From: Candidatus Omnitrophota bacterium
Lineage (GTDB): Bacteria; Omnitrophota; Gorgyraeia; Duberdicusellales; Duberdicusellaceae
Length of the DNA: 64,000 nt
NCBI GenBank assembly: GCA_016932855.1
Contig: JAFGCB010000025.1
Span: forward strand, 118,987-182,986
Reading direction: 5' to 3'
Shown: positions 12,628 through 56,427 of the stretch, piece after piece
Layout of the letters: each line of letters starts with the position of its first letter
How positions within the stretch are numbered: position 1 is the stretch's first letter
Notes under the pieces: generated by a model
Database searches by the model: none
Told to the model about the DNA's origin: nothing
What the model saw: only the letters and a program-made list of their open reading frames with translations
Translations under genes and position numbers: made by a program

Positions 12628-12636
12628 TCAAAGAAG

Positions 12637-39994: not shown

Positions 39995-40981
39995 ATGTAC
40001 ACTCTAGGAATTGAAACTTCGTGCGATGAGACTTCGGTTTCGGTTGTGAGACGAAGAAAGGTTCTTTCTTGTAAAACTCTTTCCAGCCTAAAGCTGCACG
40101 CAAAGTACGGCGGGGTAATCCCCGAGATCGCCAGCCGCCGGCATTTAAAATTCATCGACAAGGTCGCAAATCAAGCTCTTAAAGAAGCTAAAATTAATAT
40201 AAATGACATAGGCTTAGTCGCCGTGACGCAGGGTCCGGGTCTTATAGGGTCTTTGCTTGTAGGTATCTGCTATGCCAAGGCGTTGGCCTTTTCTTTAAAA
40301 GTTCCAATTTTAGGCGTTAACCATCTTTGGGCCCATTTATTCGCATCGTTTTTAGATAAACCTCTGGTAATGCCTTTTCTGGGATTGGTTGCTTCCGGCG
40401 GCCATACACAAATCTATAAAGTTTCGGATTTTGATAAAATCACTCTGGTCAGCAAAACCCTGGATGATGCCTCGGGTGAAGCTTTGGATAAAGTAGGCAG
40501 ATTTTATGGCCTGGGGTTTCCGGCGGCCCCCCAAATTGATAGAATTTCCAGGCGTGATCTGGTAGACGAGAGGTTGTTTAGTTTTAAAAAAACTGATAAT
40601 TTAAATTTCAGTTTTAGCGGAATTAAAACCAAGGCTGTATACCTGCATGATAAATTAAAGAAACAAAACAAACTTTCCAGCAAAAAGGTCTGCCAGGTGC
40701 TTTCTTCGTTTCAGCATTCAGTAGTAGACTCTTTAATTAATAATTTGACTATATGCATTAAAAAATTTAAAATAAAGAGTGTGGTTTGCGGAGGAGGCGT
40801 TTTGGCGAATCGATTATTACGCGGGCGGTTAGATAAGCTGCGCAGGGAAAGCAATCTTACGGTATGCATACCCGAAGTTTCGTATTGTCAGGATAATGCC
40901 GCTTGCGTGGCCGGCTTAGGCGAATACCTATATCGTAAAGGATACGCGTCAAAATTTAATTTCGCTCCCCTTGCGCGCTAA
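39995..40981 (+). CDS. tsaD: tRNA N6-adenosine threonylcarbamoyltransferase
   Basis: 328 aa; LGIETSCDETSV N-terminus, Kae1/YgjD family. Confidence 0.88.
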   Translation: MYTLGIETSCDETSVSVVRRRKVLSCKTLSSLKLHAKYGGVIPEIASRRHLKFIDKVANQALKEAKININDIGLVAVTQGPGLIGSLLVGICYAKALAFSLKVPILGVNHLWAHLFASFLDKPLVMPFLGLVASGGHTQIYKVSDFDKITLVSKTLDDASGEALDKVGRFYGLGFPAAPQIDRISRRDLVDERLFSFKKTDNLNFSFSGIKTKAVYLHDKLKKQNKLSSKKVCQVLSSFQHSVVDSLINNLTICIKKFKIKSVVCGGGVLANRLLRGRLDKLRRESNLTVCIPEVSYCQDNAACVAGLGEYLYRKGYASKFNFAPLAR

Positions 40982-40986
40982 AGCCT

Positions 40987-41454
40987 ATGAGTAATTTTAC
41001 TGTTTTTATCCGAATTGTGCTGGCGGTTATTTTCGGCGGACTTATCGGTCTTGAGCGCGAACATAAAGGAAGGGCAGCCGGGCTTAGAACCCATGTTCTG
41101 GTATGCATGGGTTCATGTCTTATAATGCTGGTGTCGTTATCGGTCTTCGAGGCCTATAAAAGCCAGACTCCGCTTGATCCGGGAAGAATAGCCGCCGGCG
41201 TTGTTACCGGCATAGGTTTTTTAGGCGCCGGCACGATTATACGAAGCGTTCAGCATGTAAGCGGTCTTACTACCGCCGCCTCAATCTGGGTAAGTGCCGG
41301 CATTGGCATCGGCGTAGGTTGCGGTCTTTATTTCGCATCTTTTTTGGTTACGGTTTTTGCCCTGGTAACTTTGGTTTTATTTAAACGAATTGAAGGTGCT
41401 TTGGAAATAAACGATTCTGCGCAAAATAATCAGGCAAACCCGGACGGCGGCTAA
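40987..41454 (+). CDS. MgtC/SapB family membrane protein
   Basis: 155 aa; MgtC N-terminal family (GLERE..G..AGLRTH.LV..GS), 4-5 TM helices. Confidence 0.75.
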   Translation: MSNFTVFIRIVLAVIFGGLIGLEREHKGRAAGLRTHVLVCMGSCLIMLVSLSVFEAYKSQTPLDPGRIAAGVVTGIGFLGAGTIIRSVQHVSGLTTAASIWVSAGIGIGVGCGLYFASFLVTVFALVTLVLFKRIEGALEINDSAQNNQANPDGG

Positions 41455-41532
41455 TCAGCGCGGTCAGCGATAAAGAAAACCAGTGCTATCTTTATATAGA
41501 TACGCATAACCAGTGATAATAGGGGGTGGAAC

Positions 41533-42024
41533 ATGCTAAAGAAGAAGGAAGAGGAGAAAGTGCTGGATGTAAACGCCAGTATGCAGGGAAGTCTTGTATT
41601 TTCCGACCCGGTAAATTTACGCATCAACGGAAAGTTCGACGGGGACCTTAAGACAAAAGGCATACTGCAGGTCGGCCAATACGCAGAGGTTCGGGCAGAC
41701 ATACACGGAGAAGTAATCATAATTTCCGGGAGAGTAAGAGGCACAATTCTTGCTGATAAAAAAATATGTTTGCTTTCCACCGCAGTGGTGCAGGCTGACA
41801 TATCGGCCCCGGCTTTAGAGGTAAAAGAGGGGGCAATTTTCGAAGGCCGCTCCAGCATGATCGCCGATACAATGGAACTTAAAGACATTTCTCGTTATCT
41901 GGATATCGAAGAAAACAAGATTCTCGAATGGGCTTCAACCGGCAAGATTCCGGCAATCCAAGACGGCAGCAAGTGGATATTTGAGCGAAAAAGGATTGAA
42001 AGCTGGGTAAAAGACACGAAATAG
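41533..42024 (+). CDS. bactofilin-domain protein with C-terminal HTH_17 (excisionase/MerR-like) helix-turn-helix
   Basis: 163 aa; bactofilin beta-helix repeats (INGKFDGDL...G.L.VG..A.V.ADI.GEV.I.G.V.G.I.A...I.L..TA.V.ADI.A..LEV.EGAIFEG...M), then ...LDIEENKILEWASTGKIPAIQDGSKWIFERKRIESW matching the HTH_17 pattern. Confidence 0.7.
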   Translation: MLKKKEEEKVLDVNASMQGSLVFSDPVNLRINGKFDGDLKTKGILQVGQYAEVRADIHGEVIIISGRVRGTILADKKICLLSTAVVQADISAPALEVKEGAIFEGRSSMIADTMELKDISRYLDIEENKILEWASTGKIPAIQDGSKWIFERKRIESWVKDTK

Positions 42025-42031
42025 ATTAGCG

Positions 42032-42071
42032 GATTAACTGATTAACTAATTAAGGGATTCACTGATTAAAA
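42032..42071. repeat. five tandem imperfect octamers (GATTAACT-like) in the promoter region of the HTH-membrane gene
   Basis: gattaact gattaact aattaagg gattcact gattaaaa read directly; about 20 nt upstream of the 42093 start codon. Confidence 0.7.
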
Positions 42072-42092
42072 AGCAAGGGGTGTAATACGGTT

Positions 42093-42392
42093 ATGGCAGA
42101 GAAATTAATTACCATAAGGGAAGCTTCGGAAATACTGGGAATACTGGAAAAAGACGTTATCGACTTAGCGAAGAAAAAACGGATACCTTCATATCTTATA
42201 GGCGGAGAATTTTTGCGGTTTCCCCGTGAAGATATCCATCAACTCAAAGAAAAGATACAAAAAGAATTCAACGTTTTGACTACCACTGTATCTTTTGGCG
42301 AAAAGGTCTATAATCTTTTCCATTTTAATGATTTCTACATAATATCCTTCCTGGCTATCGCAATTCTTTTGGGCGTGATTCTTTTTACATAA
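42093..42392 (+). CDS. HTH_17-family helix-turn-helix protein with C-terminal transmembrane anchor
   Basis: 99 aa; ITIREASEILGI.EKDVIDLAKKKRIPSYLIGGEFLRF.REDI matches excisionase-type HTH; C-terminal hydrophobic helix (YIISFLAIAILLGVILF). Confidence 0.6.
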   Translation: MAEKLITIREASEILGILEKDVIDLAKKKRIPSYLIGGEFLRFPREDIHQLKEKIQKEFNVLTTTVSFGEKVYNLFHFNDFYIISFLAIAILLGVILFT

Positions 42393-43070
42393 ATGTTTGA
42401 AAAAAATGAAAGTTTCCTTGAACTAGGGTTTGCTAAACTTGATTGCTCACGACAGCGACGAACCGGCCTTCCGGAGATCGTTTTTGCGCAGACAAAAGAA
42501 ATCTCCCAGCTTAAGGAAATCATTATTTCCTTTAAAAAAAACAAGGTGCCCCTGTTTCTTTCCCGCCTTAGCAAAGAACAATACCTAAGGTTAAAAAAAC
42601 ATTTTAAAGATTTAAAATATTTTTCTGCCGCCCGGATAGGGTTTTTGGGAAAACCCTATCCTAAAACCGGCAAAACCGTTTCTTTAGTCACGGCCGGCAC
42701 TTCGGATATCCCGGTGGCGGAAGAAGCAGGAGTATTTTTAGAGATTTTGGGAAACAAGGTTGAGCGAATTTTTGATGCCGGAGTTGCCGGCGTCCATCGA
42801 ATACTAAGTTTTAAAAATAAGATCGATCGCTCAAAGATAATAATCGTGGTGGCGGGAATGGAGGGGGCGTTGGCAAGTTTGGTTTCAGGAATCACCAAAA
42901 GGCCGGTTATCGGAGTTCCTACCAGTATTGGCTACGGTGCAAGCTTTAACGGCCTTGCCTCGCTGTTAGGCATGCTTAACAGCTGCTCTTTAGGGGTTTG
43001 CGTGGTTAATATTGACAACGGACTGGGAGCCGGTTATTTAGCGCACACGATTATAAACAGCGATATTTGA
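42393..43070 (+). CDS. larB: nickel-pincer cofactor biosynthesis protein LarB (PurE-like carboxylase/hydrolase)
   Basis: 225 aa; PurE-like fold with V.LVTAGTSDIPVAEEA...G..V....DAGVAGVHR; N-terminal extension typical of LarB rather than PurE; followed by larC. Confidence 0.7.
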   Translation: MFEKNESFLELGFAKLDCSRQRRTGLPEIVFAQTKEISQLKEIIISFKKNKVPLFLSRLSKEQYLRLKKHFKDLKYFSAARIGFLGKPYPKTGKTVSLVTAGTSDIPVAEEAGVFLEILGNKVERIFDAGVAGVHRILSFKNKIDRSKIIIVVAGMEGALASLVSGITKRPVIGVPTSIGYGASFNGLASLLGMLNSCSLGVCVVNIDNGLGAGYLAHTIINSDI

Positions 43071-43073
43071 TAA

Positions 43074-44213
43074 ATGGCCATGCGTGAAGAAAAGGTTATA
43101 TATTTTGATTTAATCGGCGGGGCCTCCGGCGATATGCTCTTGGCCGGGCTTATCGGCGCGGGTTTCCAGAAAACCTCTTTGGAAAATTTAATGCGGCGGT
43201 TAGGGTTTAAGCAACTCGGTATCCGCCTTAAAAAAATAAAAGTCGGTCACATATCTGCCAACCGGCTTAGTTACCAAGAGAAAAATACTAAAAATTTATC
43301 TTTTAAGGAGATTAGATCCTTGTTCCGAAAAGCTCCGATAAGCCGATGGGTAAGCGAAAAATCCATGCAGACCTATGACGATCTGCTCCGGGCTGAAGAA
43401 GCGGTACACGGCCATAAACACCATACAAGGTTCGAGCATTTAGGAAAGCCCGATGCAATAATCGAAATTGCTGGATTCTGGCTAGCCCTAGAAGAGCTGA
43501 AAATTAATCGCGGTTTTTGTTCCATATTTCCTTTAAGCCAGACCGCCCCAGCTACTATCGAGCTTCTCAAAAACCGCAAGGTTTGTTTTGTTGATTGGGG
43601 TTATGAAACAGTAACCCCTACTGCGGCCGTATTGTTAAAGAATTTTAGTCAAAACGACATGGTTCTTATTCCCAAAACCGCCGGTTACGCAGCAGGATAC
43701 AACAACAGCCCTGAACGAGAGGATATGTTACGAGTGGTTACTTGTCAAAAACCGGATATAAAAGAAAAGATCCTTAAGCTCGAAACGAACTTAGATGACA
43801 TAAATCCCCAGGTTTTTGATTATATTATGGAGCTGCTTTTTAAAGCGGGCGCTCTCGATGTTTACATCACGCCGATTATTATGAAAAAAAGCAGGCCGGC
43901 TTTTGTGTTATCGGTTCTTCTTGATAAAAAGGATTTAGTGAAAATAGAAAAAGTAATTTTTCGCGAAACAACTACTTACGGCCTGCGCTATGCCGAATTT
44001 TCGCGCGATAAGCTCAACTATAAATTTATTGAAAAAAAGACTTCTTTCGGTAAAGTCCTTTTTAGGACCGGGCATTTGGACGGAAGCATTTTTAAGCAAA
44101 GTCCCGAATATAGCCATTGCAAAAAAATAGCCTCTAAGTATAATATTCCTTTAATTGACGTCTATAAACGTTTAAATGCAAGTAATGCAGTTTTAAGGGG
44201 TAGCGGGGATTAA
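43074..44213 (+). CDS. larC: nickel insertion protein LarC (DUF111)
   Basis: 379 aa; IYFD...GASGDMLL..LI..G N-terminal LarC signature. Confidence 0.75.
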   Translation: MAMREEKVIYFDLIGGASGDMLLAGLIGAGFQKTSLENLMRRLGFKQLGIRLKKIKVGHISANRLSYQEKNTKNLSFKEIRSLFRKAPISRWVSEKSMQTYDDLLRAEEAVHGHKHHTRFEHLGKPDAIIEIAGFWLALEELKINRGFCSIFPLSQTAPATIELLKNRKVCFVDWGYETVTPTAAVLLKNFSQNDMVLIPKTAGYAAGYNNSPEREDMLRVVTCQKPDIKEKILKLETNLDDINPQVFDYIMELLFKAGALDVYITPIIMKKSRPAFVLSVLLDKKDLVKIEKVIFRETTTYGLRYAEFSRDKLNYKFIEKKTSFGKVLFRTGHLDGSIFKQSPEYSHCKKIASKYNIPLIDVYKRLNASNAVLRGSGD

Positions 44214-44331
44214 AAGGATAGAAGGGGTGAAAGGTGCCCCTCCCTCTGTAACCCTTGTATCCCTTAAAACCCTTGCAACCTTTAAAGTTGTTTCGCCATC
44301 AAACGCATTACGCGTTACGCATAACGAAATT

Positions 44332-44405
44332 GGCGGGATAGCTCAGGCTGGTAGAGCAAACGGCTCATACCCGTTCTGTCGGTGGTTCAAGTCCACTTCC
44401 CGCCA
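44332..44405 (+). tRNA. tRNA-Met (anticodon CAT; could alternatively be lysidine-modified tRNA-Ile2)
   Basis: GGCGGGA/TCCCGCC acceptor stem, GCTC..GAGC D stem, AACGG/CCGTT anticodon stem with loop CTCATAC, GGTGG-TTCAAGT-CCACT T arm, discriminator A; CCA not encoded. Confidence 0.85.
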
Positions 44406-44417
44406 TTCTGTTTCGCC
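44364..44417 (+). repeat. direct repeat copy 1 (3' half of tRNA-Met plus 12 nt), candidate attL-like site
   Basis: 54 nt; 52/54 identical to 45986-46039. Confidence 0.8.
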
Positions 44418-44811
44418 TATAGCAACGTAACACTAGTTAGGGTTTCGTAGGAATCGCCGAAGTAGGTCCTTCGAAGCCATGCCTTTTTTGAAGGGTTAAT
44501 GGCGAAGAAGACCGCTTGCCGCCACTTCTAATTACAGTTTTACCTACCATTCTCAAATTCTTAAGAATATTGGAATAGTTGTGAATCCTGCCGAAATTGC
44601 TTATCCAAACCTACTATCTTGCGGTATAATGAAAACAAAGAGCAGTTTATGAAGCGGAAATGATAACAAATTAAAGAAGATTATCGCAGACTAAAAATCG
44701 GTGTAAATCTGCAATAAATCAGCGCAAATCTGTGCAAAAAAATGAAACCTTTATTCCCGCCAATGCTTGAATTAGATGGGGTGAATCAGTAGTTATAATG
44801 CAGAAAAAAAT

Positions 44812-45918
44812 ATGAAGACTGTAAAAAAAATTTTGGGAATGGTGATTATTTTGGTTGGCATATGGAGTCTTTGGCCTTATCTTGGAGATGCTCTTTGGGG
44901 TATTGCGGGCGGCGCAGAAGACATGCTGGCTACAATCGTTGCTATAATTTTATTTTTATTGAACGTTGGACTAATTTTAGTTGGCGTCCAGATTTTCATG
45001 AATAAGATTAAAGTCTATACTTACGTATTTTTGATACTTGGACTGATAGCCTTAGTCCCTTTTTATAAACAGCTCTATTTAGAGTATATGAGTCCAATGC
45101 GTAAAGTGGCACGAGGAGATGTAGAAGGCGCACTTAAAGAATGTACTCGAATTATAGATTCTGAAGAAAAGGGTTCAGCGTATGTAATGAGAGGGAGAAT
45201 TTATTACGGTCTCGGCGAATATAAAAAAGCCCTTTCAGACTTCGCGGCTGTAGATGGTTGGATTAAATATAAATATGCAATCTTTACCCATATTAGGTTA
45301 AATGATTTTGAAAGTGCGTTGCGGACCTGTGATGCGTGGGCGAGGGTTATGCCACGGCTTGCGAGCGTTGCATATTGTTATAAAGGGGATTTGTATTATG
45401 CGCAGGGAGATTATGAAAACGCAATAGAAGCATATAGAAAACATATTGAGTTATCGAAAATACCTAACGACGATAGATCGTGGGTTGAAGATGGTGCAAA
45501 GGTCGAAGATTACATACGTTTATCAACTTGTTATGCGAAACTGGGAAATTTTTCTTTAGCTGAAGAATACCTTGATAGGGCCTTTACTCTAGCAAGTGAT
45601 TTTAATAAAGATTTATCAATAAATGAAAGCGCTGACCTTACAAGCGTATTGGTTGCAAGAGGAAATCTTTATGCTTATATTGGTAAGCTCGATGAGGCAA
45701 AAGCCCAGTATCGTCAGGCTGTTCAAAGGAACGATTCTAAATTTACGCAGAGAGTTATATGCAAGAAAGCCTCCAGCAAGATATTAAAAGAAATGGGGGT
45801 GCAGTGCTACCTTAATGCGCTTGATGAGAAGAAGGAGAGGGATCCGAGCCGAGCGATAGATCGAGATATGAGAGATTTAATGCCAAGCTTCCCATCCTAT
45901 AAATGGATATGCAGGTAA
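44812..45918 (+). CDS. membrane-anchored TPR-repeat protein (cargo of tRNA-flanked insert)
   Basis: 368 aa; 3 N-terminal TM helices then several TPR-like helical repeats (YYGLGEYKKAL, YYAQGDYENAIEAY, LYAYIGKLDEAKAQY). Confidence 0.6.
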   Translation: MKTVKKILGMVIILVGIWSLWPYLGDALWGIAGGAEDMLATIVAIILFLLNVGLILVGVQIFMNKIKVYTYVFLILGLIALVPFYKQLYLEYMSPMRKVARGDVEGALKECTRIIDSEEKGSAYVMRGRIYYGLGEYKKALSDFAAVDGWIKYKYAIFTHIRLNDFESALRTCDAWARVMPRLASVAYCYKGDLYYAQGDYENAIEAYRKHIELSKIPNDDRSWVEDGAKVEDYIRLSTCYAKLGNFSLAEEYLDRAFTLASDFNKDLSINESADLTSVLVARGNLYAYIGKLDEAKAQYRQAVQRNDSKFTQRVICKKASSKILKEMGVQCYLNALDEKKERDPSRAIDRDMRDLMPSFPSYKWICR

Positions 45919-45985
45919 TAAAAGGAGCGGTTTAAATAAAAAAGGAGGTGAAAGGCTCAAAGGAAAAGTATTACTTTTAGCGGGC

Positions 45986-46039
45986 CTCATACCCGTTCTA
46001 TCGGTGGTTCAAGTCCACTTCCCGCCATTCTGCTTCGCC
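45986..46039 (+). repeat. direct repeat copy 2 (partial tRNA-Met 3' half), candidate attR-like site
   Basis: ctcatacccgttctatcggtggttcaagtccacttcccgccattctgcttcgcc; weaker homology to the tRNA flank continues ~60 nt further, and a 16-nt perfect palindrome aagccatatatggctt lies at 46056-46071. Confidence 0.8.
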
Positions 46040-46248
46040 CTTCATAGTTTTGACGAAGCCATATATGGCTTTAGATGGCTAATGCCGAAGAAAACTAAGT
46101 TCAGTCATTGTTATTTTAAGTTATTATTTTAAATCTTGCTCTGCAGTTTTGCCTGTAGTATAATACTTTTCCGATTTTTACGAAATAGGTACAAGGCTGT
46201 TTTCGGTCAAATTTTATTAAAATCATTTTTAGCTTTAGGAGGGTTCTT

Positions 46249-46452
46249 ATGGAGACTTTTGCTTCAAGGCTATCGGGCTTGCTTAAGCGAAACATAACCG
46301 TTGTTACTACTCAAATGGAGGAAGGCAAAGCCGTTGTTTACGGCGGCACTCTTATGGAGGTGGGCTCTGATTATCTAGTGATTAAAGTTCCTAGGGAAGG
46401 CCAGCAGGTTATAAATTTTGCCCATATTGTTCGGGCTTTCGAAAATATATAA
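46249..46452 (+). CDS. small hypothetical protein (67 aa)
   Basis: GGAGG ribosome-binding site upstream; no recognisable motif; lies between the att-like repeat and the receiver pseudogene. Confidence 0.4.
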   Translation: METFASRLSGLLKRNITVVTTQMEEGKAVVYGGTLMEVGSDYLVIKVPREGQQVINFAHIVRAFENI

Positions 46453-46588
46453 AGGATTTATCGCCGAACGTCAAAAACAAAAGTATAAAGGTTTTTTCTA
46501 ACCCTAAGTATTCTGTATTTGATACGGGATGGGTTAGGGCATACTTAACTAAAAAAAAGAAATAAAGTCAATTAAGGACGAAGCTATG

Positions 46589-46980
46589 CTATAAATTTAG
46601 CGCGCCTACGTCCTTCGAGAGTTGTTTGTATTTCTGAGAGTATGTCTTTCAAGCTGAAGGGCTTGTTAATAAAACAGCTTGCTCCTTTTTTCAAACCTGT
46701 TTTCAAATCTTCCTCGGACGCTAAGGCAGTCAGCATTATTTTCGATATTTTTCGGGTTTATTGTCTTTTTTAAGACGCTGGCTGGCCTCGAATCCGTTAA
46801 TTTCAGACATAATAACATCAAGGATTATCAAATCGGGGTTTTCGCTTGCGGCTTTTTTAAACAATCAGCGCCGTTAGATACAGCAAGGATATCATAACTT
46901 TCTATTTTAAGCATTTTACCCAATAAATCGATTATTGCCGCTGCGTCATCGACCAAAATATTTTTTATCCTTTCCGACAT
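46589..46980 (-). pseudogene. CheY-like response-regulator receiver gene interrupted by two frameshifts
   Basis: Minus-strand translation gives MSERIKNILVDDAAAIIDLLGKMLKIESYDILAVSNGADCLKK... then, after a -1 shift in an A6 run, ...AASENPDLIILDVIMSEINGFEASQRLKKDNKPE..., and after a second shift ...IMLTALASEEDLKTGLKKGASCFINKPFSLKDILSEIQTTLEGRRRAKFI; together a complete REC domain. Confidence 0.65.
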
Positions 46981-47308
46981 CGCTTAATACCGTCAGCGTA
47001 GTATATCACAACAAAACATAATCACTTCCACATTTTAAGTCGCCTAAGCGCCGGGGTTAGTTCCTTTTTTTTCGCCGGCACTGTAGGATTTTTTATCAGT
47101 ACTGCCAAATTTCTGCTTTATTTTTAATCAGCAATGGGTTATTATAAGATTACAAGGTGGCAGTATGGACGTCGATAAAATAAAACTTTTTTATTCTTTC
47201 GGTATTTAATCTCCGTTGGAGCAGGCGAATTTACCGATTGATACTTTTTCTTTTTGAAATATAAAGATAAAAACCTTTTTTGGATAAAAGGAAAATAGAA
47301 TAAATTTT

Positions 47309-47692
47309 ATGCCAGAGGACCGAAGAAGATTTGAACGCGCGAAATTTCCTATTGTTGTCAGATGGCGATGTTTGACAACTTTCGCTGAAGGCGACGCGTC
47401 TTTGCCGGATTTGGCGGAAGACATATCCGCAGGAGGCGTCTGCCTGGTGTTGTATGACGCATTGAAAGTGGGCGATGAAATCGAGCTTCAATTTTCATTA
47501 CTAGGTAAAGGAAACATTCAAACAAAGGCAAGGGTTGTTTGGGTCAGGCAAGCCCAAATGTTTAGCGGCGATTACAGGATGGTGAAATACTATGCCGGCC
47601 TTGAATTTATCGAAATGAGCCAGAAAGATAAAGAATTCATTAATCAGATCATCGCTCGATTAAAAAGAAATCCCGAACAGGCACAGGCTTAA
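47309..47692 (+). CDS. PilZ-domain c-di-GMP-binding protein
   Basis: 127 aa; RRRFER (RxxxR) followed by DISAGG (DxSxGG) PilZ signature. Confidence 0.8.
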   Translation: MPEDRRRFERAKFPIVVRWRCLTTFAEGDASLPDLAEDISAGGVCLVLYDALKVGDEIELQFSLLGKGNIQTKARVVWVRQAQMFSGDYRMVKYYAGLEFIEMSQKDKEFINQIIARLKRNPEQAQA

Positions 47693-47706
47693 ATGTAGGA
47701 GCAAAA

Positions 47707-48336
47707 ATGAAAAATGTTATGCGAACAGTTTTTGTTGTTCTTTTCCTAAGTTCTGGCGTTATCTTCGCTTTGGCCGAGACCGTTGCTGAAAAATCCTCTT
47801 TACCGGATATTTCAATCGAGGGCATTCTTTTTGATGAAAACAATCCAATGGTTGTAATCAACGGCAGGACTTTACGGATAGGCGATAATATCGAAGGGGC
47901 TGAAATAGTAGAGATTACCGAAAACGGGGTAAAGTTTGACTTTCAGGGGAATTTCTATACAAAGACGCTCAATGTCGGAAAGCCCGGTCCGGTGATACGC
48001 AAACAGGAAAGTTTTTTTGAGAAGGTTAAGAAAAGTTTGAGTAAATTCTTTACCAAAGAAAAAAGCCCTACGGAACAAATAAACGCTTCGAAAGTATCGC
48101 GGTTTCAAAGACACAAGGAACTGGCTTACCGCTATTCGCGGGATGCTCAAAAAAGATCTCGTTCTGACCCCGTGGGGGCTGCGGCCTTGTATGGAAAAGC
48201 GCACCGGGAAGCTCAGATGGCTTACAAGGCTGTTCCCGGTAAAGGTAAATATGCCGATATTGAGAGGAAGAAAATGTTTAACTTAGCCAACGATTGCTTG
48301 GAACAGCAGGAAGCTTGTCAAAGATTAATGCGGTAA
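47707..48336 (+). CDS. secreted protein with PilP/GspC-like beta domain and basic C-terminal tail
   Basis: 209 aa; signal peptide (MKNVMRTVFVVLFLSSGVIFALA), segment L..ISIEGILFDENNPMVVINGRTLRIGDNIEGAEIVEITENGVKFDFQGNFY resembling the GspC-HR/PilP small beta domain, then a K/R-rich tail; 14 nt after PilZ. Confidence 0.4.
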   Translation: MKNVMRTVFVVLFLSSGVIFALAETVAEKSSLPDISIEGILFDENNPMVVINGRTLRIGDNIEGAEIVEITENGVKFDFQGNFYTKTLNVGKPGPVIRKQESFFEKVKKSLSKFFTKEKSPTEQINASKVSRFQRHKELAYRYSRDAQKRSRSDPVGAAALYGKAHREAQMAYKAVPGKGKYADIERKKMFNLANDCLEQQEACQRLMR

Positions 48337-48345
48337 ATCTACTCG

Positions 48346-48624
48346 TTGTTACAGAACTTAAGCAAGGAGGGTTATATGTTGGAAAATATCCCTTATGGCG
48401 AATATCTCGCCGGTTACATCGGAAATATAGTTTTGGTTTCATATTCAATGGCTGCGATGTTCAGTATCTTAGTTTTGGTTGTTTTGGAGATGACCGGGGA
48501 TAAGCTGAACCGCTTGGTGAAACGCATTTTTAGCGTAATCGCCTGGTTTAGCTTAATTTTTATTTTGTCCTACTGGGTCGGGAGTATTATACATACTTTA
48601 ATTGCCGCAGGCGGAAAAAGCTGA
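48346..48624 (+). CDS. small membrane protein (2 TM)
   Basis: 92 aa; two hydrophobic helices; GGAGG ribosome-binding site upstream. Confidence 0.45.
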   Translation: MLQNLSKEGYMLENIPYGEYLAGYIGNIVLVSYSMAAMFSILVLVVLEMTGDKLNRLVKRIFSVIAWFSLIFILSYWVGSIIHTLIAAGGKS

Positions 48625-48688
48625 ATGGCCGTCGTTGTATTGTTAATAAACTTTCTTTGATAGTCTAGGGTTTATTCTTTATCACAAA

Positions 48689-49012
48689 ATGTTTAAATTT
48701 AAAAAAACGGTCCGATTTTACCCTTTTATTTTTATTTTGGCCGCCAGCTTTGCCTTTGCTGAAAACGACAAAAAAGAGGATGTGCCTCCAGGAATGGAAG
48801 TAATTGAGGTGGGACAAACCAAAGTTGTTGTGCCTAAAGATTCGCAAATCCGTAAAGAAGGCGGATTGATAATACTTGAAAGCCCCAATCAATACGTGGC
48901 CAGGCGGCTCGTAGATTTTGACCAGCGTCTTTCGCTTCTAGAAAAACAAACACTAGAGCTTAAAAACCAGATTGGCCAGTTAGAAAAAGCTCTGGAAGAC
49001 GTAAAAGAATAA
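48689..49012 (+). CDS. small secreted coiled-coil protein
   Basis: 107 aa; signal peptide (FIFILAASFAFA), C-terminal heptad-like LLEKQTLELKNQIGQLEKALEDV. Confidence 0.45.
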   Translation: MFKFKKTVRFYPFIFILAASFAFAENDKKEDVPPGMEVIEVGQTKVVVPKDSQIRKEGGLIILESPNQYVARRLVDFDQRLSLLEKQTLELKNQIGQLEKALEDVKE

Positions 49013-49045
49013 CCGCTAAAGAAACAAACTAAATAAGGAGTTGTA

Positions 49046-49519
49046 ATGTCTGAGGATTTAAACAAGGAGAACATCGCTGCTGATTCTAGCAAGGATATTT
49101 TGAAGCGCCTTCTTGAAAATATCCAAAAATTTGTGACCAGGGCCAGTCTCCACACGGGATATTCCACACGAACCATGTCCTTTAACGTCTTTGGCCAGCA
49201 AACCTGGTGGCATATGGGAAATATCGGAGGAATGAATGTAGCCCAAGTCGTATGCAGATGTGAAATCACCAATATAACAAACAGCTTTGACGTAAGGCCG
49301 ATAAGCGCTATTTTAAAAGCCACGAACACTTACGGGATAGTTGGCGTAAACTCTGAAAACGGCGTTGTGTCTGTGCATTGGACTCTTCAGGCCGGTTTCG
49401 AATTTTGGGTGACCAAGCCGTTTAAGAAAAAAAGTCAGAGTTTTATATCGGATATTCTGGTGTACGATCAGTTCAGCAATCGTCATATAATAAAAGGAGT
49501 TAAATTTGAATACCGTTAA
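49046..49519 (+). CDS. hypothetical protein, no recognisable domain
   Basis: 157 aa; AGGAG ribosome-binding site upstream; Trp/Gly-rich core; no TM or signal peptide. Confidence 0.45.
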   Translation: MSEDLNKENIAADSSKDILKRLLENIQKFVTRASLHTGYSTRTMSFNVFGQQTWWHMGNIGGMNVAQVVCRCEITNITNSFDVRPISAILKATNTYGIVGVNSENGVVSVHWTLQAGFEFWVTKPFKKKSQSFISDILVYDQFSNRHIIKGVKFEYR

Positions 49520-49619
49520 AATTCGCCTTTTATTGATACCGAAATTATACTTTAACGGTAAAATTCTTTCGTTTAAAAATTGAGTTTTTTGTGTTATTAT
49601 TACATCAACAAGCTAAGCT

Positions 49620-50006
49620 ATGCTATTCTGGAAAAAAAAGAAAAAAATATTGATAATCGAGGATAACGAAGATTTAGTTATCTTTTTGAAAAAAATCCTC
49701 GAATCCGAGGGCTATACGGTTTTTTCGGTTACTCGCGGAGAAGGGGCTATAGATCTTGCCATAGCTAACAAGCCCGACGTAATACTTTTAGACATACTTT
49801 TGCCTGATATTCCCGGAGCAGAGGTAGAGCGTTTATTAAAAGAGGCTCCTCCTACCCGCAACATCCCGATAGTATATATGACTGCCTTGGTAAGCAGAGA
49901 AGATGAAGAAAACTCCAAACGGCCTGAGAGTACCCGCCTTTTATTAGCTAAACCCGTTACTAAAGATAGGCTTCTTCAGGCAATACGCAGCGCCGTCGCA
50001 AAATAA
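49620..50006 (+). CDS. single-domain response regulator (CheY-like receiver)
   Basis: 128 aa; ILIIEDNEDL..., D.ILLD (phospho-Asp), conserved T and K positions. Confidence 0.8.
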   Translation: MLFWKKKKKILIIEDNEDLVIFLKKILESEGYTVFSVTRGEGAIDLAIANKPDVILLDILLPDIPGAEVERLLKEAPPTRNIPIVYMTALVSREDEENSKRPESTRLLLAKPVTKDRLLQAIRSAVAK

Positions 50007-50063
50007 ACTAATTACGGACATTCCTTCCGATAAAATATTAATTGACTGAAAACTGGGTTAAAA

Positions 50064-50432
50064 TTAGGAAATTGCGGAGTTTATCACGGTGACCAATTCA
50101 CTCAGCCTAACTGGTTTAGTGAGTATTTTGTGGTCGTGGGGGTTAAGTCCTGCTTTTTCTATTTCGTCGTAGGATATTAAGGCTGTCACAAAAATAAAGG
50201 GTATGTTTTGCGTTTCTTTATTTTTTTTAAGTTCAATCGCAAGCTGAGATCCGTTTATTTCCGGCATCAATATGTCGAGAAGAATCAAGTCCGGTTGAAA
50301 CCGGGTAATTTCTTTGAAGCTTTCTTTAGCGTTGGAACATACCGCTACTGAAAACTTCCCGACTTTTTCCAATCCTTTCTTTACAAAAAAACAGAAATCT
50401 TTTTCGTCGTCAATAATAAGAACTTTTTTCAT
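50064..50432 (-). CDS. single-domain response regulator (CheY-like receiver)
   Basis: 122 aa; KVLIIDDEKDF, PDLILLDILMP, K at the expected position; 4-nt overlap with the upstream hybrid kinase. Confidence 0.8.
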   Translation of the reverse strand: MKKVLIIDDEKDFCFFVKKGLEKVGKFSVAVCSNAKESFKEITRFQPDLILLDILMPEINGSQLAIELKKNKETQNIPFIFVTALISYDEIEKAGLNPHDHKILTKPVRLSELVTVINSAIS

Positions 50433-51589
50433 TCTTTGTTTTTTCGGGTTAAAGGCAGGATTATTCTGACTTCCGTACCTTTGCTGATTTTGCTTTCGAT
50501 AAGCAGGTTACCGTTGTGGTTATCGAGGATAGTCTTTGCGATTGATAATCCTAAACCTGTGCCTTTCTTGTCTCGCTTGGTCGTAAAAAAAGGTTCAAAA
50601 AGCTTTGGCAGCATATCTTGGGAAATGCCTTGTCCTGTATCTTTAATTTTTATAAAGCAGGATGATTGGCCGGTATTTTGGTCATTAATCCAAGTGCCGG
50701 TAGTGATTGTGATCGTACCGCCTTGAGGCATCGATTCAACGGCATTCATCAAAATATTAAATAAAACCTGCTGTATTTGATTTTTATCAGCGTTAATGCC
50801 GATATCTTGATCAAACTCCGTTTTTATTTCAATATTTTTTAAGGGACAACGGTATTTCATAAGAGCGAGAGTTTCATTTATTATATCTTCCGGTTTAAGC
50901 AGAGTGAATTCGGCCTCCGAGGGTTTAGCGAATTTTAAAAGGCCTTGTATAATCGAATCCGCTCTTAGGGTAGCTTCTTTTATTTTCGTCATCGCCATTT
51001 TGGTGTCTCCGCTGGCGTTAGAAAGGGTCAATTCCAAGAACTCTATTCCGCCGAGGATTACCGCCAGGGGGTTTTTTACTTCATGAGCTATTCCCGAAGA
51101 AAAAGTTCCCAGTGCCGCAAGTTTCTCCGATTGAATTAATTCTTTTTGGGTTTCTTTTAGTTTACTATACGCCTCGCTTACTTCTGTTTCGAGGCGTTCC
51201 TTGTCTTTTTTCATCCTGTATTTGTCAAGGGATTTCTCAATAACCGCTTGTAAAGTTTCTCCGTAAGCGACATCCTTAACCACGTAATCGTACGCACCTT
51301 CCTTCATAAAGTCGACCGCTACCTTTTCGCTGCCTGACGCCGTAACTACAATAAACGGAATATCTATTTCTGCCTTTCGTAATTCGCGCAGCACATCCAG
51401 GCCGGTTAAATCCGGCATACGATAATCACAGAGGATTACATGCGGCCTTTCTTCGATCGCCTTCTTCAACCCTTCGCGAGAATCAGATACAAAATCAGCC
51501 TGATAATTGTTATCGACTTGCTCTAGAATCGTTTTTGTAAGAAAAGCGTGGTCTTTCTCGTCGTCGATTATTAATATCTTTACTGGCAT
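50429..51589 (-). CDS. hybrid response regulator-histidine kinase (REC-HisKA-HATPase_c), cytoplasmic
   Basis: 386 aa; N-terminal REC (ILIIDDEKDHAF...ILCDYRMPD), H-box GIAHEVKNPL, G-box GTGLGLSIAK; no TM. Confidence 0.85.
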   Translation of the reverse strand: MPVKILIIDDEKDHAFLTKTILEQVDNNYQADFVSDSREGLKKAIEERPHVILCDYRMPDLTGLDVLRELRKAEIDIPFIVVTASGSEKVAVDFMKEGAYDYVVKDVAYGETLQAVIEKSLDKYRMKKDKERLETEVSEAYSKLKETQKELIQSEKLAALGTFSSGIAHEVKNPLAVILGGIEFLELTLSNASGDTKMAMTKIKEATLRADSIIQGLLKFAKPSEAEFTLLKPEDIINETLALMKYRCPLKNIEIKTEFDQDIGINADKNQIQQVLFNILMNAVESMPQGGTITITTGTWINDQNTGQSSCFIKIKDTGQGISQDMLPKLFEPFFTTKRDKKGTGLGLSIAKTILDNHNGNLLIESKISKGTEVRIILPLTRKNKE

Positions 51590-51843
51590 ATAAAATTCTC
51601 CTTTACTTTAAACGCTGTACGCATATTATACATTTCCGGCCGCAAATTAACAATAATTAGTTTCTTTAAAAAAAGGGGGCTTTTATTTATTCCGCCGGCG
51701 AGAATAGAAAGAAAATAGAAGCGCCTTTTCTTCGGCTGCGAACCATGCATTTTTATGGCTCCGTTTGCCAGGTTTTAGCGATAATTTTATTGAAAAATGT
51801 TACTGAAGTGATAGAATGCAAATAGAGATATAGACAATAAGGT

Positions 51844-52185
51844 TTGATTATGAGTATAGTAGTCATTCGCAATACACTGCGAAAATTGTTTTCCCAACAT
51901 TTAGAAAGCCTTAAGGATTTTCAGTTTTCTTTTCGCAACCATCTATTCTGGATTTTTGTTCTTGTTTTATTCGTTATTCTGACACGTTTTTGGAAAGCCA
52001 AAAAAGCCTTTTCTTTTTGTTTCGTAACAGTTGCCCTTCTTTTGCTTACCACTAAAGCCGAAGAACTCCTGGGTGCCTGGCTTACTAATTCCGGTGAAAC
52101 TTTTGATCCTTTGCTCATTAGAGCAGTATCTGCTTTTTTGATTTTCATCATATTTTTTTATTATTCAATAATACGAGAAGAATAA
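51844..52185 (+). CDS. small polytopic membrane protein
   Basis: 113 aa; three predicted hydrophobic helices. Confidence 0.4.
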   Translation: MIMSIVVIRNTLRKLFSQHLESLKDFQFSFRNHLFWIFVLVLFVILTRFWKAKKAFSFCFVTVALLLLTTKAEELLGAWLTNSGETFDPLLIRAVSAFLIFIIFFYYSIIREE

Positions 52186-52221
52186 AAACCTTTGTTTTAT
52201 CAGATTCGTTGAGGAGAAGAA

Positions 52222-52602
52222 ATGGGCGATCTTTTCGATAATACAGAAAATTTATTTGTTAAATTAGCTAAATTTGAAGAGGTTTATCATCAGCTTAAAG
52301 ATGCAATTATCGAATGGACCGAGAAAGGTCAAGGCGTATATCATTGGACAGACGCCGATTCTAAGCAGTACGAACATAAGGCAAGCATGAAGCAAAACGG
52401 AGCCCTCATAAGATGCAGTAATCCTCGGTGCCGCCAGGGCGGATTCAATCTGGAACAGGAGCTTTCCTCGTTAGCCGTGGGCAAACAGAAAAAAATTAAG
52501 AATTTTAAAAAATGCATGGGTTTCGAGCAGGCAACGCCCGGTCAAAACCGGATAAACTGTCTGAACGGCATAGATTATAAGATAACCCTTGTTTACAAAT
52601 AA
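52222..52602 (+). CDS. hypothetical Cys-cluster (zinc-ribbon-like) protein
   Basis: 126 aa; CSNPRC...C...C arrangement; no other motif. Confidence 0.4.
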   Translation: MGDLFDNTENLFVKLAKFEEVYHQLKDAIIEWTEKGQGVYHWTDADSKQYEHKASMKQNGALIRCSNPRCRQGGFNLEQELSSLAVGKQKKIKNFKKCMGFEQATPGQNRINCLNGIDYKITLVYK

Positions 52603-52629
52603 AAGTTTCATTACCTTGATAGTTTTTCA

Positions 52630-52968
52630 ATGCAGGAAAGACGAAGATTCGTAAGAATACCTGAACGGCTGGCTATAGCCTATAAAATTCTGCCCAGCGA
52701 CAAACCAGCCGGGTTTCTTACCAAAAACATAAGCCAGGCAGGATTAAGGTTTTTCGTTCATGATTTCGTTAAACCCGCTAGCCTTTTGGAAGTAAGGGTT
52801 AGTTTTGAAAAAGTACGCTTTTCTTTGGAAGCGATTGCTCGGGTTGTCTGGGTTGAAAAAGAGGCTCATAGCGAGCGCTATGAAGTCGGCGTGGAATTTG
52901 CAACAATATCGAAAAAAGCTGCGTCTCAGCTTATTTCCTACATTGAAACAATCCTGAAAACCAAGTAG
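52630..52968 (+). CDS. PilZ-domain c-di-GMP-binding protein
   Basis: 112 aa; RRRFVR (RxxxR) and NISQAG (variant DxSxGG). Confidence 0.75.
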   Translation: MQERRRFVRIPERLAIAYKILPSDKPAGFLTKNISQAGLRFFVHDFVKPASLLEVRVSFEKVRFSLEAIARVVWVEKEAHSERYEVGVEFATISKKAASQLISYIETILKTK

Positions 52969-53036
52969 TCCTTACCCGCCTTACTCTGTCATTTTTTTAA
53001 AGCGGTTTTAGCTGGTATTTCAGGCAATATAGACCT

Positions 53037-54224
53037 ATGGAGCAAACAAAAAGAATTCTTCTTATTTGCAGGGATAAAAATCTTAACGAAATTATCTATT
53101 TTTGCCTTGAAGGCTGGGGATATGAGGTGTGCATACTGGCCGATGAAGTCATATTCCTTGAGCAAATTAAAAAAACAGAACCGGATTTGTTGATTGTTGA
53201 CTTTCCGCATCCTTATAAGGAACGCCTGAATTTTTGTCAGCAAATAAAGAACGATTTCATCACTAAATCGATTCCGGTTGTCGTATTAATTGACAGGCGT
53301 CAGCTGCGCAAACATCTTCTTTCTCTGGAGCATGGGATAGACGACTATCTTTTAAAGCCGCCTGACCCCCTCGATCTAAGGGTTAGAGTCGAGATGGCCA
53401 TGCGACGCACTCAGTATAGTTTTTACACTAACTCTTTGACTAATCTTCCCGGGGGAAGGATAATCGAAGAGATTCTTAAAGAAAAAATTTCGAAAAAAGA
53501 GAAATTTTCTTCAGCCCATATTGATATCGATAATTTTAAGTATTTTAATGACCGGTACGGTTACCTGAAAGGGGATCGAGCAATAACACAAACTGCATAT
53601 ATTTTGCATCAGACAGTGCAACGCTTCGGCACGAACAAAGATTTCATCGGCCATATCGGAGGAGACGATTTTGTTTTCATAACGTCGCTTGATGAAGAAG
53701 AGGCTGTGGCTTCGGAATTTATCCGGCAGTTTGATCGCCTTATCCCTTTGCATTATTCAAAAGAGGATCGCGTACGCGGTTATATTAATATCGAGGATAG
53801 ATTAGGGGCTGAGCGTAAAATACCCCTTATGAGTGTTTCAGTCGCAATCGTAAATAATAGAGGTGCGGACTTTAGCAATACTGTTCAGATAAACGAAGCT
53901 TTGGCCAGTCTTAAATCCTATCTTAAAAAAATGCCCGGAAGTAATTTTATGGTCGACAGAAGATTGGCGGATAAGGGAATAAATAAAAGGTCCGAAGCCC
54001 AGACATTTTTGAAAGCTTGCCGGCGGAAGGTTTGTCGAGGAAAGAACACCAAGCCCTTGGGGCAAATCCTGCTTGATAAAGGGATACTGAACAGCGATAC
54101 TCTTGAAAAAAACCTGGATATACATTTTCGACGAGGTCTTCCTTTAGGCGAAGTCCTAAAAGACAGCGGCGTAATCGATGGCCGCGAGCTTGCAGCTGTT
54201 TTATCCTGGCAGCAGCGATCTTAA
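53037..54224 (+). CDS. receiver - degenerate GGDEF (GGDDF) - MshEN-like c-di-GMP-binding domain protein
   Basis: 395 aa; REC-like N-terminus (LLIVDF phospho-Asp region), GGDEF fold with GGDDF in place of GG[DE]EF and no RxxD I-site, C-terminal tandem MshEN motifs PLGQILLDKGILNSDTLEKNL.. and PLGEVLKDSGVIDGRELAAVLSWQ. Confidence 0.7.
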   Translation: MEQTKRILLICRDKNLNEIIYFCLEGWGYEVCILADEVIFLEQIKKTEPDLLIVDFPHPYKERLNFCQQIKNDFITKSIPVVVLIDRRQLRKHLLSLEHGIDDYLLKPPDPLDLRVRVEMAMRRTQYSFYTNSLTNLPGGRIIEEILKEKISKKEKFSSAHIDIDNFKYFNDRYGYLKGDRAITQTAYILHQTVQRFGTNKDFIGHIGGDDFVFITSLDEEEAVASEFIRQFDRLIPLHYSKEDRVRGYINIEDRLGAERKIPLMSVSVAIVNNRGADFSNTVQINEALASLKSYLKKMPGSNFMVDRRLADKGINKRSEAQTFLKACRRKVCRGKNTKPLGQILLDKGILNSDTLEKNLDIHFRRGLPLGEVLKDSGVIDGRELAAVLSWQQRS

Positions 54225-54237
54225 CCTTTTAAAGATA

Positions 54238-54594
54238 GTGAATTTGTATAAAAATAGGTTAATTTTTGCATTAATTGTATTATCTGGCATTATTTGTCTA
54301 AGTTCTTGTAGTAGAACGCGGGGTTACTCTTCTACCCAAAGCGCCCTTACTGAAATTGGTTCGGCTGTAAGCCCCGGTAAATCAAAAACTTCAAAGAGTG
54401 CAGTTATTATCGAAAATATTTTAATTGATCGAAAAGACACTAAAGAAAGCGTGGAAAAGAAAATAGGCAAGCCTTCCTATATCGGCACTACTATCGAAGG
54501 TTTTCAATTCTATCGTTACGAGGATAAACACATAGAAATTTACTTTAGCGGCAATCGAGTGGTAGGTTGGAATGACCTTTATTTTCGACCGTGA
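54238..54594 (+). CDS. putative lipoprotein
   Basis: Proposed GTG start at 54238, just after the upstream stop; the track ATG at 54178 overlaps the preceding gene. Signal plus lipobox LSSC; 118 aa. Confidence 0.4.
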   Translation: MNLYKNRLIFALIVLSGIICLSSCSRTRGYSSTQSALTEIGSAVSPGKSKTSKSAVIIENILIDRKDTKESVEKKIGKPSYIGTTIEGFQFYRYEDKHIEIYFSGNRVVGWNDLYFRP

Positions 54595-54603
54595 GGGCAA
54601 AAA

Positions 54604-55884
54604 TTATTGCCCGGCCGAAAGTTTTTTGTTTAGTTGACGTGTATAATCTTTTATCCAGTAGAATTCCTTTAAAGCCTGCGGCCGGCTTGAAAAAAATATG
54701 GAATTGTTATGCAGCAGGGGATCGGCAAACATATTTTCATAATCCTTAAAAATCTTTGTTTTAGGCGTTATGGCGAATTCCGCAAGAGACACCCTGGCTC
54801 CCTGAGAATTAAGGAAATCTATCTCTTTCTTAAGTTCTTCCAAATCTTGATCAGGATAGCCTAAAAGTAAATAGAGGCTGAACTCACCGTTTTTAAACCC
54901 CGCTTTTTTTAATGTTTTCACGCCTTTTTCCACCTCGCTTAAATTTACTTTATCGCCCCATTTTTTTTGCAAGCTTGGATTCAATGTTTCCAGTCCGAAA
55001 TGTGGGTTGGTAAACCCCGTTCTTTTTAGCAGGCTGGCGGTTTCCTCATCCAGAAATCGCAAATGCAGGGCATTGGGGGTGTGAAATCTGACATTAATTT
55101 TTGCTTCTAGAATTTTTCGCAACAGGCTTTTTATGTATTTGTTTTCGTAAAGAAGGGCATCATCATAAAATACGAAATCGCCTATTCCTTTCCTGCAGTA
55201 TTTTAAAATAAACTTTATAACCTTTTCTTGGGAGATTCGGAAAAAACCATCGGATAATTCGTTTATCGCGCAATAGCTGCAGCTAAACGGGCATCCCCAG
55301 CTGGTCCGCAAAACCACGTAATCAAGCTTGTGATAAAAGTCTTCATATCGTGGTAAAGTGGAAAATAATTCTTTCGGCTCATAACCGATGTTAAAAAGTT
55401 CAAAAAAGCCGTTCAGCTTTCTGTTTTCGAACAAATAATCACACCCAATTATTGACTCTGCGTGGCTGTGACAAAGCGTGGCGTATGTGCCCCCTAATAT
55501 TATCGGGGTACCGGGATGATGCGTTTTAAGAATTTTAATGACTTCACTTATTGCCGGATACCAATAAGTCATAGAGGAGGTTATGAGTATAAAATCCGGC
55601 TTGGTCTTTTTTATTTCCGATTCGACCTCGGCTATAGTTTTTCCGTAACGCTTAAAATAGCGCGGCACCGATTCAAGAAGCTTCGGCTTAGCGATCCGCT
55701 CCGAATAGTATTTGCCTCTGCCGAACGGATCTTTAGAAATTTTTTTATCCAAGCAATCAATAAAATCGATTCTGTTTTGTTTGGTTTTTAAATAAGATAG
55801 GATCGAGAGAAATCCATACGGTTTAAGCCAAAAATCATAAGCCGCAAAATCATATATCCAGGGATTTATCGCTAAAATCCGCAT
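54604..55884 (-). CDS. B12-binding-domain radical SAM protein
   Basis: 426 aa; N-terminal cobalamin-binding-like domain, CPFSCSYC (CxxxCxxC) radical SAM cluster motif. Confidence 0.75.
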   Translation of the reverse strand: MRILAINPWIYDFAAYDFWLKPYGFLSILSYLKTKQNRIDFIDCLDKKISKDPFGRGKYYSERIAKPKLLESVPRYFKRYGKTIAEVESEIKKTKPDFILITSSMTYWYPAISEVIKILKTHHPGTPIILGGTYATLCHSHAESIIGCDYLFENRKLNGFFELFNIGYEPKELFSTLPRYEDFYHKLDYVVLRTSWGCPFSCSYCAINELSDGFFRISQEKVIKFILKYCRKGIGDFVFYDDALLYENKYIKSLLRKILEAKINVRFHTPNALHLRFLDEETASLLKRTGFTNPHFGLETLNPSLQKKWGDKVNLSEVEKGVKTLKKAGFKNGEFSLYLLLGYPDQDLEELKKEIDFLNSQGARVSLAEFAITPKTKIFKDYENMFADPLLHNNSIFFSSRPQALKEFYWIKDYTRQLNKKLSAGQ

Positions 55885-56020
55885 ATAACTCGACTTTTTG
55901 AATAAATTGCAAATTGTTTTGCCTATGCTATAATTTTTAAGAGTTTGGTTGACCTTTTAAAGGTTTCCTAAGGCGTCAAGAAAAACCGCGTCTAAAATAA
56001 AAGAACGGAGGTTTAAACAC

Positions 56021-56401
56021 ATGGGTGTGCCACGAGGATTATTGTATACTAAAGATCATGAATGGGCAAGAATCGAACAAAACAATGCTATGGTCGGGAT
56101 AACCTACTATGCGCAGTCTCATTTAGGAGATGTTACGTTTGTTGGTTTACCCCAGCTTGGCAAATCCTTTTCCCAATTCGAAACAATCGCTACCATTGAG
56201 TCAACTAAAGCGGCCGTGGAAATACACAGTCCTTTGTCGGGCAAGGTTATAAAAATAAACGAAAGCCTTACATCAAATCCTGAATTGATAAACCGGTCGC
56301 CTTACGATCAGGGTTGGCTTGCGGTCTTAGAGATCAATAGGGACAGCGAAGAAAAAAATCTTTTAACAGCCGGCCAATACGACATTTTTTTGGAAACCTG
56401 A
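56021..56401 (+). CDS. gcvH: glycine cleavage system H protein (lipoyl carrier)
   Basis: 126 aa; YTK.HEW...., G.T.YAQ..LGD, lipoyl-lysine region IESTKAA, PY..GW. Confidence 0.88.
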   Translation: MGVPRGLLYTKDHEWARIEQNNAMVGITYYAQSHLGDVTFVGLPQLGKSFSQFETIATIESTKAAVEIHSPLSGKVIKINESLTSNPELINRSPYDQGWLAVLEINRDSEEKNLLTAGQYDIFLET

Positions 56402-56427
56402 GCTGAGGCGCAGCGCAATTAAAAAAT

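Follow-up and report, generated by a model that had tools for sequence, protein, structure and literature searches.

Integration of mobile DNA into tRNA genes leaves footprints that have been surveyed on a large scale. In the Islander collection, 3760 of 3919 islands carry a 3' fragment and 2083 have an attP centred on the anticodon (Hudson, Lau & Williams, 2015; PMC4383910), the sublocation classes being those of Williams (2002). The same resource drops candidates that lack an integrase or are shorter than 2 kb, its length filter being set at 2-200 kb (PMC4383910). Cis-mobilisable elements (CIMEs) of streptococci are decayed integrative and conjugative elements (ICEs) or integrative and mobilisable elements (IMEs) that keep attL and attR (PMC5704250), and partial tRNA genes derived from integrated elements have been reported in Thermococcaceae and other prokaryotes (van der Gulik et al., 2023; PMC9897764). 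This study concerns a footprint of this kind in a Candidatus Omnitrophota bacterium, located on contig JAFGCB010000025.1 of assembly GCA_016932855.1, of which a stretch of 64,000 nt (the window) was analysed. A tRNA(CAU) gene is followed there by a 1568-nt segment (44418-45985) bearing one gene, and then by a second copy of the 3' part of the tRNA. The segment is probably the decayed remnant of an element that was inserted into the tRNA gene by a tyrosine integrase. The footprint is of a known kind, found here in a little-studied phylum and in an unusually small and stripped form.

The window holds a single tRNA gene, labelled tRNA-Met(CAT) by ARAGORN at 44331-44406 and matched by Rfam RF00005 at 44332-44405 with 62.4 bits. 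This intact gene on the forward strand (44332-44405) would represent the regenerated target on the attL side. Its 3' portion belongs to a 54-nt direct repeat, whose attL-like copy 1 (44364-44417) and attR-like copy 2 (45986-46039), both on the forward strand, are identical at 52 of 54 positions (96%) and start 1622 nt apart. Each copy comprises tRNA positions 32-73 (42 nt) and 12 nt of trailer, that is, the anticodon loop, the 3' strand of the anticodon stem, the variable loop, the T-arm, the 3' acceptor strand, the discriminator base and the trailer. According to both the sequence and the Rfam alignment, the left edge coincides with position 32, where the 7-nt anticodon loop CTCATAC begins, and the anticodon loop and stem are unchanged in both copies. 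Immediately past +12 of the tRNA the identity drops from 96% to near background, with indels, and the exactly shared block of the two copies measures 32 nt. Two sub-patterns of the repeat each occur twice in the window, with an expectation of 0.00 from 100 shuffles. A third copy was absent from the window, both with up to 3 mismatches allowed and by short-word blastn.

The first-pass annotation had described the 3' part of a tRNA with 12 nt of flank as repeated 1.6 kb downstream with 52 of 54 identities, and had read this as an attL/attR footprint of site-specific integration. The duplication was confirmed by ARAGORN, Rfam and the repeat search, and the attL/attR-type anatomy turned out sharper than had been stated, starting at position 32 and ending abruptly 12 nt past the tRNA. 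A larger tandem duplication had been named as one finding that would speak against mobility, and neither a third repeat copy nor a second copy of the enclosed gene was found.

By analogy, the geometry of the repeat corresponds to the identity block of those tyrosine-integrase att sites that have the anticodon loop at their centre, and as in the anticodon-centred class of Islander, the block extends from that loop to beyond the 3' end of the gene. The locus also resembles Islander islands in that an intact tRNA gene and its displaced fragment, in direct orientation on the same replicon, mark the ends of the segment with a cargo gene between them, the fragment being a 3' end with its inner boundary at the anticodon loop. 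Unlike those islands, the segment contains no PF00589 integrase and no helper, phage or conjugation genes, and at 1.6 kb it falls below the 2-kb minimum. By this comparison it may work like an Islander-type island, and may be a remnant of one, while not being a member of that database class. A sharply bounded identity block is expected of site-specific integration because it recombines two different molecules that share only the conserved core. As copy 2 is not a functional tRNA, a duplicate made in place should instead have aged evenly along its length.

The two differences between the copies were compared with functional homologues of the tRNA. Copy 2 has A at variable-loop position 46 (46000), where copy 1 (44378) and all six functional homologues compared have G, and its trailer has C (46033) where copy 1 (44411) and the related Omnitrophota locus L046 have T. 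Both differences are suggestive of drift in copy 2, and the departure at G46 would reflect relaxed constraint. If the segment did enter as an element, its attP would have included a substitute for the tRNA sequence that begins at the anticodon loop and ends 12 nt beyond the gene, and strand exchange would have taken place in or beside the 7-nt loop. A working tRNA would thereby have been rebuilt from the 5' part of the host gene and the 3' part supplied by the element. Copy 2 would accordingly be the original 3' part, displaced 1.6 kb downstream to 45986-46039 together with its original trailer and hairpin. Later internal deletions would have taken the integrase and all else but one cargo gene, leaving an integrase-less segment between two att-like repeats.

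The amino acid specificity of the target can be stated less exactly than its position. The anticodon CAT cannot tell Met from Ile2, and the Met label is that of ARAGORN. At E <= 1e-3 the only Escherichia coli matches of the tRNA were genes annotated as tRNA-Ile whose anticodon is CAT (82.8% over 57 nt), which suggests that it may be a lysidine-type tRNA-Ile2 rather than a tRNA-Met. The window also encodes, at 58101-59114, a PP-loop protein that in our reading is TilS-like.

The relatives in this study are six Omnitrophota loci (L046, L047, L048, L066, L070 and L071). Among them, the gene order bactofilin, HTH, LarB, LarC, tRNA(CAU) is kept in L046, L047, L066 and L070, and a fifth contig, L071, breaks off at the first bases of the tRNA. 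Each of the four complete loci has one tRNA(CAU) gene and neither a tRNA fragment nor the gene carried by the segment. In the comparison of related genomes that the first-pass annotation had proposed, the insert was thus absent from four of four relatives with a complete LarC-tRNA junction, all of them distant (LarC 40-61% identical). L047 also keeps a downstream block corresponding to window positions 48689 to 57243. The interval from the tRNA to a conserved RR-GGDEF gene differs in every relative and spans 8.6 kb in the window. Measured from LarC to RR-GGDEF (44213-53037 in the window), it ranges from 18 nt in L048, which has no tRNA at this place, to 8.8 kb in the window. A pilin-like gene occupies the interval in L070, ferredoxin and response-regulator genes in L047, and unrelated genes in L046. 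In the window it contains the inserted segment, a 67-aa open reading frame (ORF), a response-regulator pseudogene, and PilZ and T2SSB-like genes. These differences support the suggestion of an accessory hotspot. Judging from these sequences, the interval downstream of tRNA(CAU) varies within the clade, and the segment appears specific to this genome.

Within the segment, a non-coding left arm of 394 nt (44418-44811) precedes the sole gene (44812-45918, forward strand), and a 67-nt spacer separates this gene from copy 2. The gene encodes a 368-aa protein with matches to the tetratricopeptide repeat (TPR) families TPR_1, TPR_2 and TPR_8 at E values of about 1e-20, above the Pfam cut-offs (75 bits against 27 for TPR_2; 75.5 bits against 27.8 for TPR_1). 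TPR proteins are built of tandem helix-turn-helix units of 34 residues. Its AlphaFold model, with a mean predicted local distance difference test (pLDDT) score of 78, has long helices at residues 2-31, 38-62 and 68-92, followed by an all-helical solenoid. A membrane protein with three helices and TPR repeats had been named as the only cargo, and both the Pfam matches and the three long N-terminal helices of the model bear this out. The three helices are presumably transmembrane, and the protein is most likely a membrane-tethered scaffold that binds other proteins. Structure searches returned generic TPR solenoids only (OGT, kinesin light chain, LGN and MamA, for example), the best PDB matches being TPR domains. 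PHROG and PADLOC likewise gave only generic TPR matches.

The protein belongs to a sparsely represented family. A word-indexed protein search returned the protein itself as the sole match, and HMMER searches of 1.84 billion representatives recovered about six full-length relatives with 22-35% identity and the same layout of helices plus TPR. This rare three-helix and TPR family consists of the cargo protein and P0037, P0038, P0039, P0077, P0082 and P0163, and its members have in common a motif past the third helix, RGD..GA...Y.R.I......Y..RG.IYY.LGEY.KA..DF. The gene for P0082 is located near the end of a 633-kb contig, amid poorly annotated genes with long spacers, where Pfam recognised only Fic and Ser_hydrolase. 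No tRNA, tRNA fragment or integrase was found on the contigs of cargo homologues L051-L053, L067 and L068, which are unrelated to that of the window.

In composition, the TPR gene has the second lowest GC content at third codon positions (GC3) among 62 ORFs (0.344; z = -2.3), and the tetranucleotide distance of the insert falls in the top 2% of 1.6-kb windows. The compositional deviation of the insert is mild. Low GC3, tetranucleotide distance and membership of a rare, scattered family together give the cargo the look of an accessory gene, and it was probably acquired horizontally.

The absence of an integrase, excisionase or transposase between or beside the repeats, as reported in the first-pass annotation, extends to the whole window, where no phage gene was found either. 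The scan combined Pfam searches of 60 ORFs, a regular expression for recombinase motifs and six-frame reading of the insert arms, and the Pfam matches were to housekeeping, signalling and secretion-related domains only. By analogy with P4-like islands, a tRNA-proximal integrase would be expected in the left arm. Six-frame reading revealed no recognisable integrase remnant in either non-coding arm, only short stop-free pieces in the left one. The arms also gave no Rfam match at E <= 1, and their fold z-scores (-1.1 to -1.9) were not significant, so that no structured RNA was recognised in them. A transposon or insertion sequence was considered and rejected, as there are no flanking inverted repeats and no transposase, and the duplication is 54 nt long; target duplications of typical transposons are far shorter.

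A degenerate pattern of the 42-nt tRNA 3' part was used to look for the same species or an attP in metagenomes, and for an attP in viral contigs, where it had no match. The 13 loci returned by the metagenome scan all proved to be complete tRNA(CAU) genes from other organisms, each lacking the acceptor strand of the window. The TPR cassette had no copy in viral, metagenome, phage or plasmid collections, and the protein met with nothing, or with generic TPR similarity only, in the viral, phage and plasmid sets. Neither an ancestral element nor a cognate integrase for the segment was found in the collections searched.

Several of these results weigh against an integrase-borne origin of the segment. 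Besides the missing integrase and excisionase, no attP-type partial tRNA was detected in the viral contigs or metagenomes, and no relative examined has an integrase at this tRNA. The codon usage of the TPR gene is not deviant, so that of the deviation in GC and codon usage that had been proposed as a check, only the low GC3 was seen. The LarC proteins of the four insert-free relatives are only 40-61% identical to that of the window, and the locus is variable anyway, which lessens the weight of the missing insert. No close relative, and hence no empty site in one, was found in the collections searched: the nearest LarC in a search of 5.8 billion proteins is 61% identical, and a LarC scan of species-representative genomes gave at best 36-43% over the best-matching segments. 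Of the site-specific integration first proposed, the attL/attR-type anatomy stands, and integration itself is inferred. In both copies, moreover, the acceptor strand is the lineage-specific TCCCGCC, in place of the CGCCGCC or CCCCGCC of relatives, and the 12-nt trailer of both resembles that of L046. The common acceptor strand implies either that the donor was a very close relative or that the duplication arose in place.

The latter alternative, an endogenous rearrangement without a site-specific recombinase, could have consisted in the duplication of part of the tRNA region, or in the insertion of a circularised piece of a sister genome by a RecA-dependent single crossover, with deletions thereafter. 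Such an origin would account for the shared acceptor strand and the L046-like trailer, and it draws further support from marginal collinear similarity further downstream, from an inverted and frameshifted regulator gene and variable content nearby, from a RecA encoded in the window and from the lack of an integrase. It is nevertheless rather unlikely, as a random breakpoint would fall exactly on the first base of the anticodon loop in roughly 5-7% of cases by our own estimate, and at +12 the identity of 96% gives way abruptly to near-background similarity, even though no tRNA selection acts on copy 2. A second TPR copy or any trace of a larger duplicated unit is also lacking. In its simplest form, a tandem duplication, this origin was rejected as the main explanation on account of the abrupt identity drop at +12 together with the exact boundary at the anticodon loop.

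The decayed tRNA-integrated element that we favour also has much in common with CIMEs. As in those elements, two att-like repeats at the 3' end of a tRNA gene are retained, genes for integration and transfer are absent, and the locus has variable accessory content. Unlike CIMEs, the segment is much smaller, has a single gene and no tandem partner, and occurs in the phylum Omnitrophota. By definition, then, it resembles a CIME. A further likeness is to the cases of Thermococcaceae and other prokaryotes, in which integration duplicated part of the target gene and left a non-functional partial tRNA copy. The DNA enclosed in those cases is 9-23 kb long and recognisable as viral or mobile, as compared with 1.6 kb and nothing recognisably mobile here.

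Given this resemblance, the segment might still be a mobile minimal element, its repeats being acted on by an integrase whose gene lies at another place in the genome or arrives with an incoming element, so that the TPR cassette would be excised or carried along by CIME-type mobilisation. The repeats are nearly intact (52 of 54), with the anticodon loop and stem unchanged, and there is a possible inverted half-site to the left of copy 2. CIMEs likewise keep attL and attR without genes for integration and transfer, and CIME-ICE tandems have been seen to transfer (PMC5704250). In addition, the k=31 assembly graph of the source run cannot separate an integrated form from a circle plus an empty site. 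Continued mobility, one of the two readings offered in the first-pass annotation, seems improbable, however, with no integrase in the 64 kb examined and no cassette copy or attP-type junction in the collections searched, and with a derived base at a conserved tRNA position of copy 2 that suggests drift. Slightly more doubtful still is the specific proposal that the segment is a working single-gene cassette, free of an integrase and flanked by tRNA-derived att sites, which is excised and re-inserted by an integrase acting in trans. If true, it would be smaller than any CIME-like mobile unit described so far and would document such traffic for the first time in Omnitrophota.

The source being a metagenome-assembled genome (184,839-nt contig), the contig might also have been mis-joined through tRNA k-mers common to several strains or species, the TPR segment belonging elsewhere. 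An independent Logan assembly (run SRR13394437, k=31) contains exact substrings of the window at 40248-44368, 44551-46030 and 46003-55864. Its contigs thus break at both repeats and, for a reason to which no repeat corresponds, at 44551, and the stretch 44369-44550 was not recovered in them; these features would fit a mis-join. The contig ends at 46030 and 46003, on the other hand, bracket the 32-nt exact block, each contig carrying its own copy-specific base, from which it follows that both repeat copies exist in the reads. This break pattern is the behaviour of a k=31 graph at a true short repeat. The TPR gene is joined to the tRNA fragment on one Logan contig (44551-46030) and the fragment to the downstream sequence on another (46003-55864), so that both junctions are real, and a tRNA fragment is genuinely linked to the TPR gene however the contigs are ordered at long range. 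As ordinary reads easily span a block of only 32 nt, a mis-join is very unlikely. The break at 44551 possibly stems from population variation or low coverage. The Logan contig with the TPR gene begins at this position in the non-coding arm, beside a 12-nt palindrome, ATTCTTAAGAAT (44558-44569).

Several features flank copy 2. The hexamer AGCGGG (45979-45984, forward strand) directly to its left matches the inverted complement of CCCGTT (45992-45997) at five of six positions across a 7-nt loop, and RNA folding pairs these bases. It may be a candidate core-type half-site inherited from attP; it was noticed post hoc, and by our own estimate its chance expectation is roughly 2%. In the trailer past copy 2 lies the perfect 16-nt palindrome AAGCCATATATGGCTT (46056-46071), which had been pointed out in the first-pass annotation and is indeed present. 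L046 and L047 have a hairpin at the same position after the tRNA, and the palindrome is probably the original trailing hairpin of the tRNA. Weaker homology beyond the second repeat had also been claimed. The stretch 46054-46095 (forward strand) does align with 44472-44512 at a score of 26, compared with 16.7 +/- 2.4 for shuffled sequences, and this score was reached by 1 of 500 shuffles and 1 of 481 genomic controls, so the similarity is present in the alignment and marginal in significance.

Further downstream, outside the repeats and in the variable interval, an orphan 67-aa ORF (46249-46452, forward strand) has a good Shine-Dalgarno sequence, no counterpart in the relatives and no match in Pfam, PHROG or PADLOC, in agreement with its earlier designation as an orphan; gene calling on the Logan contig also returned it. 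A frameshifted receiver gene had been proposed next to it, and it is a real response-regulator pseudogene on the reverse strand (46584-46980), with two frameshifts at short A-runs. Its three collinear pieces lie in three frames and by tblastn all match L047 at 12578-12937, within a 121-aa regulator (12578-12943) that is its closest match. The pseudogene sequence is identical in the independent Logan contig. The L047 regulator has the opposite orientation, which implies a local inversion.

Upstream of the tRNA, tandem motifs are found directly before the gene at 44241-44328, namely the 18-nt AACCCTTGCAACCCTTAA in 2.1 copies and the 7-nt ACGCATT in 3.4 copies. A similar ACGC-rich motif occurs in L046 ahead of the tRNA and of the next gene, and these motifs are putative promoter or regulator sites.

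Some further non-coding features were observed in the relatives. Downstream of the tRNA, L046 (11417-11524) and L047 (11636-11743) have an element of about 110 nt that starts with CATAGGGGGCTCTGCCCCCTCT and is 81% identical between the two; the LarC proteins of these loci are only 55-61% identical to that of the window. The element is absent from the window and has no Rfam match, and it may be a candidate for an undescribed small RNA. In the LarC-tRNA gap of L047 (11110-11444), a unit of about 72 nt occurs three to five times, every time with a GC-rich hairpin formed by GGCATCGAGGCC, TTCG and GGCCTCGATAC, the stem of which varies among copies by paired changes. Each hairpin is followed by the motif AAGGAAATTGACC...TATA. 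One hairpin of this type is located directly ahead of the tRNA in L071 (2027-2090).

The general understanding of tRNA-targeted integration is unchanged by this locus. For annotation, 45986-46039 should be recorded as a tRNA fragment and not as a gene. Small decayed islands of this sort, which still deliver lineage-specific genes, escape island finders that demand both an integrase and a minimum length. For Omnitrophota, a phylum known only from metagenomes and whose mobile elements and target sites are barely described, the locus would provide a precisely mapped integration scar.

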